Positions 18,096-21,785 of a stretch of 64,000 nucleotides of DNA are shown one piece after another (within the stretch, counting starts at the first letter, position 1; each line of letters opens with the position of its first letter). The stretch is from a virus: UHGV virus genome UHGV-0142425, one strand, 5' to 3'. The notes under the pieces are model-generated. The model ran no database searches, had not been told where the DNA came from, and saw only the letters and a program-made list of their open reading frames with translations. The position numbers were made by a program, and so were the translations under genes.

Positions 18096-18112
18096 ATTGC
18101 TCTAATAAAAAA
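18096..18112 (+). promoter_or_regulatory. C1 operator (14/17) at the promoter of the 17863-16599 unit
   Basis: ATTGCTCTAATAAAAAA. Confidence 0.6.
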
Positions 18113-18134
18113 CGTGATGAGTGTACATCACGTT
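18111..18134 (-). terminator. Rho-independent terminator hairpin with flanking A/T runs, ending the upstream minus-strand operon
   Basis: AACGTGATG-AGTGTAC-ATCACGTT read in sequence. Confidence 0.55.
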
Positions 18135-18144
18135 TTAAAAATAT

Positions 18145-18161
18145 GGAATTATTAGAGCAAT
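18145..18161 (-). promoter_or_regulatory. Second C1 operator-like site (14/17) flanking the terminator
   Basis: GGAATTATTAGAGCAAT. Confidence 0.5.
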
Positions 18162-18162
18162 A

Positions 18163-18864
18163 TTATTCTGATTCTCGCTCAAAAAACGAGCTAATGAGGG
18201 GAAGCCAATCCTCTGACACTTCGCGAGGCCGCGGTTTGCCGTGGAAAAAGATTATTCGGCAGTCCTTTGGTAATGTCCCATTCCCCCTGGAGTAACGCGC
18301 GCTCGCATATTTTGAACCAGGTTCCACAACATCGGCCTTGTAACTTACAAACCATCCTGGATACAGATCCTGAAATGCTGGTGTATCATCGCCCATAACC
18401 TTCCGTAAAAACCCCTGATCACCCCAGCACTCAGTAGTGACACAACGAGAAATCCAACCTTCCGGATCTTGCCAGAATGAACTCCAGATATGTGCTTTTA
18501 CACTATTTGGTATCCACAGGGCACCGCTACCACGATATTGTGGATGGTAAAAATCCCTAAGCATGGTGAAGCTGGTTGGTGGATTCTCAAGGATTGGGCG
18601 TATATCACCGGCAATAACTGTGTCCAAATCCAGATAGAACAGATCATCGGTTATATCCGGTCGGAACAACTCGATTTTCGCCCACCAGCCACGGCACTTT
18701 TGCCACTGGTTGATCAATGGGACAACTTTGACACCAGGTACATGTAAACGCTTCAGGTCTGTCAGGCAAATAATTTCATAGCCTTTTGGCAGTTGATTAA
18801 CCAGCCACTGCACATCGGAAGCGTTATAGTCACCACCAGAGCGAAGAACTAAAGCAATCTTCAT
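18163..18864 (-). CDS. GT-A-like glycosyltransferase candidate, 233 aa
   Basis: FYLDLDTVI DxD-type motif; fold assignment is pattern-based. Confidence 0.4.
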
Positions 18865-19553
18865 GCTGCACCATCACCTTTCACTTTCATCAATGTCAGG
18901 TTTCCGCAAAATACGGCACCAGTGTCGATATAATGCTGATTCCAGAATGTCTTCGGGCTTTTCACCGGAGTGTGACCAAAGATAAAACGATCTGCGCCCG
19001 AAATTTCGCCACCAATATCATCCATCGAATCACTGATACGCTCGCGCGCCCAGACAACGTTGAAAAGCGGCACCTCCTTACCGAATTGATATTCATTATC
19101 CGGATAGTCGGCATGGGCTATAACGATAGTTTCTTGCCCGGTGTTCAACTCAATGATATAGGGCAGTCGTCTTACCAACTCCACCAGCGCCCTGGCTAAT
19201 ATTTCCTGATCAGCGTCCAGCATGAAGAACCATTGACCGCCATTCATTAGCCAGTTATTCACGTTGCCATCAGGACTTAACGCATCGAGCATCAACCGCT
19301 CATGGTTCCCCATTACTGCCCTGAACCAGGGCATCTGCAATAGTTCCAGACATTCGACATTTTCAGTACCGCGATCGATAAGGTCGCCGACCGATATCAG
19401 TAAATCCTGCGCCGGGTCAAAATCCACACGATGGAGTTCGGACATCAGTCTGGTGTAGCAACCATGCAGATCACCAACAACCCAGACATTCCTGTATTTG
19501 GTACCGTCGATACGGTGATAAATTGTTGGTGCCATCATGTATTCTTCAGCCAT
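18861..19553 (-). CDS. Ser/Thr protein phosphatase, lambda PP/NinI-like metallophosphatase, 230 aa (possibly P1 ppp equivalent)
   Basis: GDLHG, GDLIDRG, GNHE motifs. Confidence 0.75.
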
Positions 19554-20161
19554 TCTTTAAGAGTCATCTGCGGAATACCTCCCATTTTCCCGCATGAAAC
19601 AACGTCAATCTGTTCACGCGCAGACTGGAATAACAAAGGCAGGTGACTTAGATTTTTTGGCGTGCCGCCGGAGTGAACGCGTGGTTCTTGCGTAGCGTCA
19701 ACACCCACCAGGGCTACATGTTTGAATCCGATATGGAAAGCCAGGTTCAGAGCACCATATGCACTATTGCCGCTGGCAATTTCATTCTCATCTTCGCAAA
19801 GGCCGAAATGTGCGGACCAGCGCCATGCCCACCACTCTGGAGAGTTAGTATTTTTTGGCTCCGTGCCTCGTTCAGCCACACGACGGAAGCACAGAACGCC
19901 GTCTCTGACCTCACGTTCTTTAACATCGGGTAGCGCCATGCAATAACAAACACCACGGCGACGGCGGCCACGACCAACGCGTCGCATATTGTCTGGCGAT
20001 GGATCAAGGGTGAAAAAATAAGAAGCGCGGTTAAGCCAGTCGATGGCCCCATTGACCGCTATAATCGGCACTCCGCGCGGCGCAACAAAGTTTGCGGCGC
20101 TTGGGCCACTGCCGACGATAATAACGCGATCACTGCCTCTAAATTTATTCTTGGGAAACAT
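19535..20161 (-). CDS. MptE/DUF115-like protein, paralogue 1 (208 aa)
   Basis: [10 protein letters not shown] ... [11 protein letters not shown] ... FFTLDP; overlaps the upstream paralogue by 102 nt. Confidence 0.5.
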
Positions 20162-20721
20162 TGAATTGCACTGCTCCTACTTGCATTCAAAATATGTAAA
20201 TCTGCGTGTTTTTTGCGGGTATCCAGGAACTGCTGTTGCCATTTTGAAATAGACACCTGCGTTGGATTCCGTAGGGCTTGAGGGTGCGCGCCATGCCAAT
20301 GAAGGCCGTTTTGCAGAGAACAGTCATAGCCGACTAATACCACTACTTCAGCCCCTGATTCAGCAGCCAGACTGATAGCCTGCGCGCCGCTATTTACCCC
20401 TTCCGCCGGTCCACAATATCGCCTGTACTCCAACGAAAATGATTTCGCCGCCGCCAGGTTGGCTGTCACTTTGCGGAATCTCCCTCCCGGTATGGTGGAT
20501 CCGTATTGCTTCCACCATGACAAATCACCGGCGTATAAGGCATAAATGTCATCGAACATCTGCCAGGAATTGTTAACCGCGATGATTGAACAGCCAGTTT
20601 TTTCTATAGCAGCACAGTCCTCACGAGTGAGTGACGGACCGCTACCGACACAAAAAACAGTCCTAGTCGCCCTGCGTGGTATGTTCATTCTCAGCTGCAA
20701 ATTCAGCCTCCAGGCGAGCAT
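20059..20721 (-). CDS. MptE/DUF115-like protein, paralogue 2 (220 aa)
   Basis: VFCVGSGPSL ... IIAVNNSW ... ALYAGD; start may be the internal Met at 20688. Confidence 0.5.
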   Translation of the reverse strand: MLAWRLNLQLRMNIPRRATRTVFCVGSGPSLTREDCAAIEKTGCSIIAVNNSWQMFDDIYALYAGDLSWWKQYGSTIPGGRFRKVTANLAAAKSFSLEYRRYCGPAEGVNSGAQAISLAAESGAEVVVLVGYDCSLQNGLHWHGAHPQALRNPTQVSISKWQQQFLDTRKKHADLHILNASRSSAIQCFPRINLEAVIALLSSAVAQAPQTLLRRAECRL

Positions 20722-20884
20722 TCATTTCAGCGATTACAGGGTCCACTACAGCATCTGTTTCCTGTTCATTACGCGGCATGATCGATGCCAGCGATTCATA
20801 ATTAGCCTTGGATGACACGATTATTCTCCCGATGTTAATGTGCGCTATATCAAATGGCGCATATGTACTAATTAATTTATTATT

Positions 20885-21463
20885 TTAAGCAGCATACAAC
20901 CACTTGTCGCCGTTCAATACATGCTCAATAGCCTCACCCTTTTTAAGGCTTATGTATTCCAGGATGGCGGTTATCGCTTGTTCTGCACCATACGCAAGAA
21001 CGACGTAGTAACCTTCCTCTCTAAGCCTGCGCATCCAGGCGATCTGCTCTTTCGTCGGGGCTTTACCATTTGGTTCTTTAAGCTCAATTCGCATGCCGTG
21101 ATAAATACCGCATGCTTTATCGAGACTCATGTCCGGATAACCTTTTTTCTGCCCTTCAGCCTTCATTTTCCCGGCGGTTGCTTTTGAACGTTTCCCTCCG
21201 TTAGGCGTTGCATGCAACAGCTCATAGATGTCAGGGTGCTTGCGTTCGAAGTAATCAAAAATGAAAACCTGCTCGAAGTGCTCGCAATTTCCGTCGCGCA
21301 GGTCTGGGTTCTTTGCCAGTGCTGCAAGTGCCTTCGCATGTGGAGAAATTTCTTTTACCGGCGCAAGCGATAAGAATGGATCCTTTTTGGTTTTTGGCCT
21401 GGACCGCCCCTTATTTCGACGCTCACTAAAAGCCTGAAACTCTTCCTCAGTAAAGCGCAACAT
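20885..21463 (-). CDS. VRR-NUC domain nuclease, 192 aa
   Basis: FIFDYF...PNGG...GYPDMSL...IELKEPNGK pattern of VRR-NUC (PD-(D/E)xK). Confidence 0.55.
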   Translation of the reverse strand: MLRFTEEEFQAFSERRNKGRSRPKTKKDPFLSLAPVKEISPHAKALAALAKNPDLRDGNCEHFEQVFIFDYFERKHPDIYELLHATPNGGKRSKATAGKMKAEGQKKGYPDMSLDKACGIYHGMRIELKEPNGKAPTKEQIAWMRRLREEGYYVVLAYGAEQAITAILEYISLKKGEAIEHVLNGDKWLYAA

Positions 21464-21465
21464 AA

Positions 21466-21678
21466 TCAGTCAAATCCTGCCGGTCGCATGCCATATTTAC
21501 GCTGTTTTGCAGCCTGCTCTTCCCTGTGCCATTGCGCACACTCAGCGTCACAATAGATGCCTGATTCGATCGGTTCATTGCAGTAACGACACTTCCCTGT
21601 AAATACCTGGCTCACGACCTGTGCCTGCTTTCTGATGTTATCGATGGCCATGTCTTTGAGAGCTTCTAATTGATTCAT
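21466..21678 (-). CDS. TraR/DksA-type C4 zinc-finger protein, about 70 aa
   Basis: CRYCNEPIE...YCDAEC; ORF track 21466..21711, start likely at MNQLEAL. Confidence 0.55.
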   Translation of the reverse strand: MNQLEALKDMAIDNIRKQAQVVSQVFTGKCRYCNEPIESGIYCDAECAQWHREEQAAKQRKYGMRPAGFD

Positions 21679-21768
21679 GCTCAGCTCTGCATCATCAACA
21701 CGTTCTGCCAATTTTGTTTCCTCGTGAAGAACCTACTTAAGGGCAGAATGATACATTTCACAATCAAA

Positions 21769-21785
21769 ATTGCACTAATAATTTT
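21769..21785 (+). promoter_or_regulatory. C1 operator (15/17) in the divergent promoter region
   Basis: ATTGCACTAATAATTTT. Confidence 0.6.

Follow-up and report, generated by a model that had tools for sequence, protein, structure and literature searches.

Phages of mycobacteria carry virion glycosylation cassettes, i.e., sets of phage-encoded glycosyltransferases, often accompanied by O-methyltransferases, that are dispensable for plaques. According to Freeman et al. (2023, Cell Host Microbe; cited in PMC12619734), these cassettes reportedly decorate capsid and tail-tube subunits with glycans. The enzymes to which the proteins described below can be likened come from other settings. WaaZ (PF27901; CAZy family GT73), which transfers the third Kdo (KdoIII) to the LPS core in E. 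coli K-12, is a protein of 283 aa with insertions, encoded chromosomally in the waa cluster. The Maf flagellin nonulosonic-acid glycosyltransferases (DUF115) modify a cytoplasmic protein before its export, and CstI and CstII of Campylobacter are sialyltransferases of family GT42. Retaining enzymes of family GT8 include glycogenin, the Skp1 α-galactosyltransferase AgtA, GlyE, LgtC, and WaaO/WaaJ. The phosphatase of bacteriophage lambda (NinI, 1G5B) is encoded among the nin-type early genes of that phage.

Phage P1 is among the most used phages, and about one-fifth of its genes are still labeled as having a "putative morphogenetic function." Here we analyze a block of P1 genes in a viral genome (UHGV-0142425), of which a stretch of 64,000 nucleotides, hereafter the window, was available.

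Results

The block at 18096-21785 of the window is the pmgL–pmgQ region of phage P1, which has been sequenced before but is unstudied; an earlier sequence-only reading had guessed correctly that part of it might correspond to "P1 ppp and neighbours." According to the P1 annotation, the block lies between the tail genes and pmgR. Its differences from P1 are largely silent (14 nucleotides but only two amino acids in pmgP, and 16 nucleotides but four amino acids in pmgQ), and in phage phi456 it is interrupted by an IS. The features predicted in the sequence-only reading were found at the positions it gave, with four corrections. It had listed six open reading frames; these are present, but the count is seven, because the 51-aa pmgN (20663-20818, minus strand) was overlooked.

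The block had also been read as a single C1-controlled unit of early genes. A C1 operator does occur at its upstream end, i.e., O26/Op82 of the P1 annotation (21769-21785, plus strand; ATTGCACTAATAATTTT, with two mismatches to the consensus), and the window contains nine operator-like matches against 0.33 expected. This operator overlaps the annotated sigma-70 promoters P1pmgL and P2pmgL (21748-21808). However, the P1 annotation gives two units, pmgL-pmgM and pmgN-pmgQ, and the description as purely early fails, because an Lpa-dependent late promoter, LPpmgL (21800-21818, minus strand; transferred from P1 annotation, L001 6801-6819), is annotated upstream, in a region (21700-21870) that differs from P1 by one base. 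The promoter annotated for the second unit, PpmgN (about 20891-20917, minus strand), lies inside the end of pmgM, where we found a promoter-like site at 20910-20882. Near it is the degenerate C1 operator annotated as Op83/Oppp (20862-20878, plus strand), which reads TATGTACTAATTAATTT in the window and CATGCACTAATTAATTT in P1, and has five mismatches, one more than in P1. The block thus consists of two adjacent P1 transcription units that are C1-repressed and lie 3' of an Lpa-dependent late promoter, a mode of control read from the P1 annotation, with the feature sequences conserved in the window.

As for the terminator proposed at 18111, a terminator-like hairpin (18107-18136, minus strand; stem 18113-18119/18126-18132, followed by a U run) does lie 3' of pmgQ, with a ΔG of -13.4 kcal/mol and a z score of -4.97, but it overlaps an operator match, Op86b (18096-18112), that is part of the next operon, pmgR-pmgS. 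A further operator match, Op86a, lies at 18145-18161, and the P1 annotation for this region gives OpmgRa/b and PpmgR.

The family assignments made in the sequence-only reading, i.e., a GT-A glycosyltransferase, a lambda-type phosphatase, two paralogues of the DUF115/MptE fold, and a VRR-NUC protein, were all correct, while the TraR-like assignment of PmgL was weak. The latter protein (21466-21711, minus strand; 81 aa) is a small four-Cys zinc-finger protein with one amino acid unlike P1. It matches PHROG 54, "DksA-like zinc finger" (E=1.7e-13), and nothing in Pfam, NCBIfam, or the PDB, and its Cys spacing, as read from the sequence, is C-x2-C-x10-C-x3-C, whereas that of TraR/DksA is CxxC-x17-CxxC. 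PmgM (20885-21463, minus strand; 192 aa) has a VRR-NUC nuclease domain, matching the stand-alone VRR-NUC structure 4QBL with E=3.5e-17, although its Pfam VRR_NUC score of 21.2 bits is marginally under the cut-off of 23.8; its PHROG match is to Holliday junction resolvase. PmgN, the acidic product of the first gene of the second unit, belongs to PHROG 2350; the gene was essential by CRISPRi score, yet its deletion is viable. Outside P1-like phages, pmgL, pmgM, and pmgN were never found with pmgO, pmgP, and pmgQ.

Between pmgP and pmgQ lies ppp (18861-19553, minus strand; 230 aa), which overlaps both adjacent genes, by 19 and 4 nucleotides. The metallophosphatase motifs expected of its product are indeed present (GDLHG, GDLIDRG, GNHE, and GH), with GDxHG, GDxxDRG, and GNHE at residues 27, 56, and 82. 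Ppp is a lambda-type Ser/Thr phosphatase of the PPP family: it matches the lambda enzyme with E=1.4e-94, shares all of its motifs, is 64% identical to it according to the P1 record, and scores 59 bits against Pfam Metallophos (cut-off 21.5). In the P1-like phage JK004 and at one further locus (L152) there is no ppp between pmgP and pmgQ, the cassette lacks it at every non-P1 locus examined, and in phage D6 ppp occurs alone, in a different context, among nin-type early genes, whereas in P1 and P7 it sits between two glycosyltransferase genes. It is a lineage-specific insertion.

PmgQ (18163-18864, minus strand; 233 aa) contains the DxD motif noted previously, as D79-L-D81, which is invariant in 52 homologues, as are K63 and D149; Q150 and H208 are nearly so. 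These residues align with their counterparts in glycogenin and AgtA, so that the DxD metal/UDP motif, the conserved Lys, the GDQ catalytic-site motif, and the C-terminal His metal ligand are all present, and the GT-A fold of PmgQ can be superimposed on GT8 structures. Its family profile matched GT8 sequences in the PDB with E=4e-9 to 6e-5, but no Pfam family, Glyco_transf_8 included, was matched at E<=1. Because of this combination, PmgQ is classed by sequence as a distant GT8-like enzyme, minimal in size, rather than as a member of the Pfam family.

PmgO (20059-20721, minus strand; 220 aa) and PmgP (19535-20161, minus strand; 208 aa), whose genes overlap by 103 nucleotides, are transferases of the DUF115/Maf/sialyltransferase fold. 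Both elements of the duplicated GSGPS...IIAVN signature were found in each, and their paralogy is real, being recovered by profile-profile comparison (hhalign 97.9%, E=3.5e-13, 163 columns). The fold is a Rossmann-like nucleotide-binding one, common to Maf, MptE, CstI/II, and thiamine pyrophosphokinase. The Pfam MptE-like family (PF01973) was matched at only 23.7 and 20.9 bits, under its gathering cut-off of 34.6; some homologues have precomputed matches to this family, and one (P0337) reaches 44.1 bits. Matches to Maf, CstI, and WaaZ were longer and better than those to kinases.

The closest characterized sequence relative of PmgP that we found is WaaZ. A deep PmgP family profile aligned with an 11-sequence WaaZ alignment at 95.2% probability (E=2.5e-8, 176 columns), whereas the probability was only 8-40% when the profile was shallower or WaaZ was represented by one sequence. 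The PmgP family HMM scored WaaZ at 23-31 bits and CstII at 20 bits or less, and the fusion protein P0051 has a faint match to PF27901 (WaaZ_KDO_III). PmgP and WaaZ share the motifs SGPS...IAVNG and AxxAxQxAYxLxxxxIxxxGxD. By these comparisons PmgP is likely to be homologous to WaaZ, with membership of the KdoIII-transferase subfamily a further step. Identity to WaaZ is about 20%, and every context of PmgO and PmgP that was examined was a phage or prophage, none being an LPS (waa) cluster; their acceptor probably differs from that of WaaZ.

Outside P1-like phages only pmgO, pmgP, and pmgQ are linked, both by adjacency and, frequently, by gene fusion, in many phages unrelated to one another, and these three genes, a sugar-transferase cassette, are the functional core of the block. 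The fusions comprise PmgO-PmgP (P0051), PmgP-PmgQ, PmgQ-PmgP, PmgQ-PmgO-like, and PmgQ-PmgP-methyltransferase, with PmgP joined to PmgQ in four proteins (P0300, P0369, P0385, and P0348). A PmgO-type domain adjoins PmgQ on the same strand in 21 of 34 divergent PmgQ loci, and the trio is present in phiNP, EP_H11, JK004, and the jumbo phage XacN1. In other phages the cassettes additionally contain GT2 enzymes together with FkbM-, TylF-, and class-I methyltransferases; the GT2 and sugar O-methyltransferase partners point to glycan assembly. All of the named hosts of homologues are Gram-negative.

As in the virion-glycosylation cassettes of phages, relatives of the P1 cassette are co-located with structural genes; in P1 itself the corresponding features are the late promoter and the location between the tail genes and pmgR. 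At 13 loci the cassette begins 43-1070 bp (mostly about 350 bp) 3' of the major capsid gene. These loci span at least three capsid lineages, 20%-30% identical to one another, although eight of the ten full-length capsids compared belong to one lineage, so that capsid adjacency is partly a lineage effect. Downstream are head-completion, gp10-like, and tail-completion genes. The capsid-adjacent cassette is not moron-like, because it is packed tightly with its neighbors, matches its flanks in GC content, and lacks a terminator of its own. Within lambdoid genomes its place is in the late region, between the lysis genes and terS.

Discussion

The genes pmgO, pmgP, and pmgQ very probably form a glycan-building cassette. 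PmgQ would be an Mn2+/DxD-dependent retaining GT8 enzyme transferring an α-hexose from a UDP-sugar, and PmgO and PmgP a Maf/CstII/WaaZ-fold (sialyltransferase-like, DUF115) pair, probably transferring a CMP-activated ulosonic acid. CMP-Kdo is the sole donor of this kind in E. coli K-12, and we rate the chances that it serves the pair as about even. We know of no genes for sialic, pseudaminic, or legionaminic acid synthesis in P1. The reading we favor, though tentatively and at somewhat less than even odds, is that late in infection the three enzymes assemble a short glycan on at least one protein of the phage particle (head or tail), by analogy with the mycobacteriophage cassettes; a virion protein as acceptor carries the same tentative weight. 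Such a glycan might shield or stabilize the particle or mediate its adhesion. The genes ppp, pmgL, pmgM, and pmgN are co-transcribed neighbors rather than obligate parts of the cassette. The broader proposition, that P1 and scattered phages of Gram-negative bacteria, jumbo phages included, decorate their particles with a short O-glycan of hexose and Kdo or another ulosonic acid by means of a portable PmgO/PmgP plus PmgQ cassette, is rather doubtful.

The Pmg proteins are absent from the virion components described in the P1 literature, as fits enzymes. Placement of the cassette beside capsid genes or in the late region, and its presence in virulent jumbo phages, speak for a link to the virion. 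Against particle glycosylation, P1 is not known to contain a glycoprotein, its 2022 virion proteome mentions none, and protein-linked Kdo has, to our knowledge, no precedent. The cassette of P1 itself also lies away from the capsid gene, its C1-controlled sigma-70 promoters would allow early expression too, LPS rather than protein is the substrate of WaaZ and of several GT8 enzymes, capsid adjacency is in part a lineage effect, and single deletions are without plaque phenotype.

The same enzymes could instead remodel the LPS core, with PmgO and PmgP adding extra Kdo to the inner core like WaaZ, and PmgQ playing a part comparable to that of the GT8 enzymes WaaO/WaaJ/LgtC in the core. The resulting altered or truncated LPS would remove the P1 receptor (outer-core glucose), limiting superinfection or the loss of progeny on debris. 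The alignment of the PmgP and WaaZ families and the faint PF27901 match favor such a role, as do the truncated outer core that accompanies the third Kdo in WaaZ-made glycoforms (PMC4651636), the early firing of the C1-controlled promoters of the P1 operons, and the Gram-negative hosts. Yet we consider LPS remodeling unlikely. Many phages embed the cassette between capsid and head-completion genes without promoter gap, terminator, or GC shift, or in the lysis-terminase region, so that expression would be late, when new LPS could presumably no longer replace that at the surface. The cassette also occurs in virulent jumbo phages, to which lysogenic conversion has no relevance. Known lysogenic-conversion LPS modules lie near int/att and include membrane proteins, none of which is present here, and at so low an identity to WaaZ the acceptor need not match. 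Improbable to a like degree, in our view, is an acceptor of another kind, be it a host protein, a small molecule, or a phage protein outside the virion, modified for takeover or for evasion of a defense sensor. In its favor, the top matches in GT8, namely AgtA (on Skp1), GlyE, and glycogenin, glycosylate proteins and have soluble targets, the target of Maf is cytoplasmic, early expression of the cassette is possible in P1, and a conditional accessory function would typically give no plaque phenotype on laboratory hosts, as seen here. Placement inside head or late modules is, however, conserved in unrelated phages, none of the seven proteins of the block matched a PADLOC defense model or gave another match related to defense, and in-frame deletion of each gene in the block left plating normal and anti-restriction intact (PMC9024508; PMC10695390).

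The sequence-only reading had suggested an enzyme set that modifies a nucleotide, nucleic acid, or protein for counter-defense or takeover. A single six-gene set acting in this way on a nucleotide or nucleic acid is not supported, given the linkage of only pmgO, pmgP, and pmgQ elsewhere, the separability of ppp, the glycan-related partners recruited at other loci, the normal deletions, and the negative PADLOC result. A narrower version, in which PmgO and PmgP are MptE- or thiamine-pyrophosphokinase-like nucleotide enzymes acting with Ppp and the glycosyltransferase, is very unlikely: their sole Pfam match, below the cut-off, is MptE-like, and ppp overlaps both neighbors, but the non-kinase matches win in score and length, the enzymes that constantly accompany them belong to GT8, GT2, and the sugar O-methyltransferases rather than to kinases or phosphatases, and neither JK004, L152, nor any non-P1 locus has ppp in its cassette. 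P1, moreover, has no hypermodified DNA and no hydroxymethylase gene that we know of. Finally, with no single deletion altering plaques or anti-restriction, and with the IS in phi456, the genes might be dispensable passengers lacking any current function in P1. That is extremely unlikely, since catalytic motifs are invariant across families with 30%-57% mean column identity, changes relative to P1 are mostly silent, and linkage and fusions are kept across distant phages.

Three "putative morphogenetic" genes of P1 are thereby turned into a concrete, cheaply testable hypothesis, i.e., a portable glycan-building cassette, probably Kdo-dependent, that occurs also in lambdoid, HK97-like, and jumbo phages. 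Should particle glycosylation be correct, phages of Gram-negative bacteria would join mycobacteriophages in having glycosylated virions, as the first such case described, with, as far as we know, the first protein-linked Kdo and a new class of acceptor for WaaZ/Maf-type transferases. Consequences would also follow for recognition by the immune system, for how stable therapeutic and transducing phages are, and for resistance-spreading P1-like phage-plasmids. LPS remodeling, if that were true, would represent a new kind of phage-encoded inner-core modification. Either outcome would be informative, and in-frame deletion mutants exist (PMC9024508).

Among the known systems, WaaZ differs from PmgO and PmgP in its larger size and chromosomal location, although its donor, CMP-Kdo, would exist in every Gram-negative host, and the Maf enzymes have flanking domains that PmgO and PmgP lack. 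Unlike the cassettes of mycobacteriophages, the P1 type combines a GT8 enzyme with DUF115/WaaZ-like transferases in phages of Gram-negative hosts, and its donor is probably a CMP-ulosonic acid. Like them, many of its divergent relatives carry methyltransferases and adjoin the capsid gene.

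The Block Corresponds to the pmgL–pmgQ Region of P1

Positions 18000-21900 of the window aligned end to end with Escherichia phage P1 (AF234172 / NC_005856) at 98.2% identity, and P7, RCS47, SJ46 and other P1-like phage-plasmids were 97.6-98.2% identical to the same region; judged by sequence, the source phage is P1-like. The block at 18096-21785 is the known pmgL–pmgQ region of P1, as the sequence-only reading had suspected in naming P1 ppp and its neighbors. According to the P1 record it comprises, all on the minus strand, pmgL (21466-21711), pmgM (20885-21463; RefSeq label VRR-NUC), pmgN (20663-20818), pmgO (20059-20721; "alpha-2,3-sialyltransferase"), pmgP (19535-20161), ppp (18861-19553; metallophosphoesterase) and pmgQ (18163-18864; glycosyltransferase). 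The earlier count of six genes had overlooked pmgN. Each of the seven proteins differs from its P1 counterpart by only 1-4 residues, the nucleotide changes being mostly silent. What is already known of the block is its sequence and coarse labels, not its function: a search of the literature turned up no work on what pmgO, pmgP or pmgQ do, and full-text hits to the pmgL–pmgQ genes were confined to tables of essentiality and lists of expression.

The gene overlaps between 18861 and 20818 are unusually long (pmgN/pmgO, 59 nt; pmgO/pmgP, 103 nt; pmgP/ppp, 19 nt; ppp/pmgQ, 4 nt). The stretch of pmgO shared with pmgP encodes a C-terminal tail that is not conserved in the family, and pmgO homologs begin 12-20 residues downstream of the annotated pmgO start. 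In phi456 (OR339795) the block is broken by an IS element (InsB): the match falls into two segments, together 82% of the query, and the feature list lacks pmgO.

In-frame deletions have been made of pmgL, pmgM, pmgN, pmgO, pmgP, pmgQ and ppp, and the 24 non-lethal deletion mutants showed normal plaquing and unaltered anti-restriction (PMC9024508). For the block genes, CRISPRi is concordant with the deletions except at pmgN, which scores as essential with dCas12a (EOP 1.4e-2; PMC10695390), whereas its in-frame deletion is viable (PMC9024508). Because every downstream gene of the unit is non-essential, this discrepancy is not simple polarity. Together, the deletion and CRISPRi data limit any essential role of the block genes.

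An Internal Operator and Promoter Divide the Block

The C1 operator claimed at 21769 was present (21769-21785), with 2 mismatches to the consensus, and the window contained 9 operator-like C1 sites, compared with 0.33 expected by chance. Further strong matches lie at 31720-31747 (two C1 operators overlapping in opposite orientation), 35253-35269, 49454-49470 and 51117-51133. Another C1 operator, Op88 (1 mismatch), adjoins the start codon of pap ("P1 acid phosphatase", 16003-16525), a second phosphatase gene less than 3 kb from ppp, with a TTG start and a HAD-type DxDGT motif (IVIVDIDGT).

The terminator proposed at 18111 corresponds to a minus-strand hairpin with a U run behind it (18113-18132; dG -13.4 kcal/mol, z -5), and it overlaps Op86b, a C1 operator belonging to the next operon. 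An internal operator, Op83 (Oppp, 20862-20878), and a promoter, PpmgN, both missed previously, divide the block into two units. Op83 is TATGTACTAATTAATTT in the window, against CATGCACTAATTAATTT in P1; a C-to-T substitution within the operator's conserved GC raises the mismatches to the consensus from 4 in P1 to 5, and C1 may repress the pmgN-pmgQ unit less tightly here than in P1. The description of the genes as early is consistent with the C1 operator. However, the annotated late promoter of P1, the Lpa-dependent LPpmgL, is retained upstream, in a region identical to P1 bar one base, and the block genes are therefore not simply early.

PmgO and PmgP Resemble the Kdo Transferase WaaZ

The duplicated GSGPS and IIAVN signatures reported in the 19535 and 20059 genes were found in both PmgO and PmgP. 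By BLAST, the two proteins had the N-terminal motif alone in common; by profile-profile comparison their homology was clear (97.9%, E=3.5e-13, 163 columns). When the PDB and BFVD were searched with a structure model of PmgO (pLDDT 87), the best matches upheld the MptE/DUF115-type fold predicted by the sequence-only reading.

A precomputed "faint" Pfam match to PF27901 (WaaZ_KDO_III) on a homolog led to E. coli WaaZ, a transferase that the K-12 core needs for its third Kdo (PMC4651636). BLASTP against WaaZ recovered only the N-terminal motif, and shallow profiles reached just 8-37% in hhalign. It took a deep PmgP-family profile, built from 123 diverse representatives out of 580 (exhaustive search, E<=1e-3), to make the link convincing; this matched an alignment of 11 WaaZ members at 95.2% (E=2.5e-8, 176 columns). 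This profile scored WaaZ sequences at 23-31 bits, whereas CstII scored no more than 20 bits with the PmgP family. A designed propeller repeat, Tako8, which topped the PDB sequence search with the deep profile, was rejected as spurious (eight domain matches of 3-5 bits each).

WaaZ, at about 20% identity, thus appears to be the closest characterized sequence relative found for the PmgP family, which supports a reading of PmgO and PmgP as transferases using a CMP-ulosonic acid donor, rather than as pyrophosphokinases. To our knowledge, CMP-Kdo is the sole such donor in K-12, and we regard the case for CMP-Kdo as the donor of the two DUF115 enzymes as evenly balanced. Isoelectric points did not help to judge membrane association: PmgO and PmgP share a basic pI with WaaZ and PmgQ has an acidic one, but values within the families range over pI 5-10.

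Other assignments made from the sequence were mostly sustained. PmgQ has the DxD motif (D79-L-D81), and its matches included LgtC, a GT8 LPS enzyme. Ppp has the phosphatase motifs GDLHG, GDLIDRG and GNHE and is closely homologous to the protein phosphatase of lambda (1G5B, E=1.4e-94), and PmgM is a VRR-NUC nuclease of the stand-alone type (4QBL, E=3.5e-17). The "TraR-like" label for PmgL, a small four-Cys protein, is weak: PmgL matched PHROG 54, "DksA-like zinc finger", and no entry in Pfam, NCBIfam or the PDB, but its spacing (C-x2-C-x10-C-x3-C) differs from that of TraR/DksA (C-x2-C-x17-C-x2-C).

Only pmgO, pmgP and pmgQ Travel Together

Synteny was assessed from the neighborhoods of distant homologs, among them 34 divergent PmgQ loci from an IMG/VR scan with the PmgQ profile; a scan of viral contigs with the PmgP profile returned near-identical P1-like loci alone, adding nothing new. 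A PmgO-type domain lay next to PmgQ on the same strand in 21 of the 34 (4 of the other 13 lacked upstream sequence), and ppp, pmgL, pmgM and pmgN occurred in none. Only pmgO/pmgP and pmgQ co-travel in these neighborhoods. The complete trio was found in a Serratia prophage remnant, Citrobacter phage phiNP, Escherichia phage EP_H11 and the Xanthomonas jumbo phage XacN1 (385 kb, virulent), and Ochrobactrum and Onishia prophages carry PmgP with PmgQ or PmgO with PmgQ. In an unrelated phage (L003), a lysis cassette is followed by a PmgO-PmgP fusion and then a PmgQ gene.

All three families are linked by fused genes: PmgO-PmgP (P0051), PmgP-PmgQ (P0300, P0369), PmgQ-PmgP (P0385), PmgQ-PmgP-methyltransferase (P0348), methyltransferase-PmgP (P0382), PmgQ-PmgO-like (loci L168 and L170), TylF-methyltransferase-PmgQ (XacN1 ORF373) and, in BFVD, fused GT8 plus MptE-like proteins of 685-700 aa. 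Cronobacter phage JK004, which is P1-like, and another locus (L152) have no ppp between pmgP and pmgQ, and phage D6 has ppp alone among lambdoid nin/ead-type genes, with no pmgP or pmgQ homolog. Judged by these three loci, ppp acts as a mobile gene in its own right. From the synteny, fusions and ppp absences, the "module" resolves into a three-gene cassette, a phosphatase insertion of the P1/P7 lineage, and unrelated upstream neighbors.

In XacN1 (4032-6654), the PmgO-like ORF375, PmgP-like ORF374 and fused ORF373 lie directly upstream of two ORFs of >1000 aa and beside ribonucleotide reductase genes. A Hafnia alvei prophage (L004-L006, 8001-10332) has, between its lysis genes and terminase, a PmgO-like gene without PmgP or PmgQ; next come a 280-287-aa protein of no assigned family, a class-I methyltransferase and an ORF of 110 aa. 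Possibly this is a variant of the cassette in which another enzyme takes the second place.

The Cassette as a Probable Glycosylation Unit and Its Possible Acceptor

With a GT8 enzyme and two WaaZ/Maf-like paralogs, the cassette is very probably a glycosylation unit, conserved, portable and uncharacterized. Elsewhere it is joined by GT2 glycosyltransferases and by FkbM-, TylF- and class-I methyltransferases, by sequence a toolkit for an O-methylated oligosaccharide.

Remodeling of the LPS core by PmgO, PmgP and PmgQ would accord with the WaaZ link, the LgtC match, the C1-controlled early promoters and the use of the LPS core as P1 receptor, yet we consider it unlikely, since late, operon-embedded expression comes when surface LPS can no longer be replaced by new LPS, and the idea fits jumbo phages poorly. 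Far less probable is modification of a nucleotide or nucleic acid by PmgO/PmgP, Ppp and the glycosyltransferase, as first proposed: Maf and WaaZ matches beat kinase matches, the partners of the cassette are glycan enzymes, and the phosphatase is dispensable to it. DNA hypermodification was rejected, the partners being sugar methyltransferases and GT2 enzymes; we know of no hydroxymethylase from P1, whose DNA is cut and cloned as a matter of routine. Nor was a six-gene counter-defense set supported, given that the trio alone co-travels, no block protein matched a PADLOC model, and the deletions left anti-restriction unchanged.

The surroundings of the cassette may point to the particle. Among the three ORFs upstream, the commonest Pfam families were major capsid (10), portal (9) and prohead protease (about 10), and downstream they were head-completion (8), gp10-like (7), tail-completion (5) and connector (5) proteins. 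At 13 loci the cassette starts 43-1070 bp (mostly about 350 bp) past an HK97-type capsid gene, the gap holding one ORF of about 90-100 aa. The adjoining capsids belong to at least three lineages that are mutually only 20-30% identical; their PmgQ proteins are 37-65% identical. In lambdoid phages the cassette sits between lysis genes and terS. A moron or lysogenic-conversion role was unsupported for the capsid-adjacent cassettes, which are unlike lysogen-expressed morons because their GC content equals that of their flanks, they overlap or abut the next gene, and they lack a terminator of their own. Short Ser/Thr/Gly-rich C-terminal tails of the neighboring capsids were dropped as candidate acceptor sites, since such tails seem generic among HK97-type capsids.

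Enzymes that modify virion proteins would fit late co-expression with particle proteins, occurrence in virulent jumbo phages, and the absence of the cassette proteins from the virion proteome. On this genomic context we tentatively propose, at somewhat less than even confidence, a virion protein as the acceptor, which the PmgO, PmgP and PmgQ enzymes would modify while co-expressed late with the particle proteins; less probably, it is a different protein, not of the virion. The cassette reading is directly testable, as deletion mutants already exist. Freeman et al. reportedly described, in 2023, a system that glycosylates mycobacteriophage capsids and tail tubes, and this would be the precedent for modification of virion proteins by the P1 cassette.
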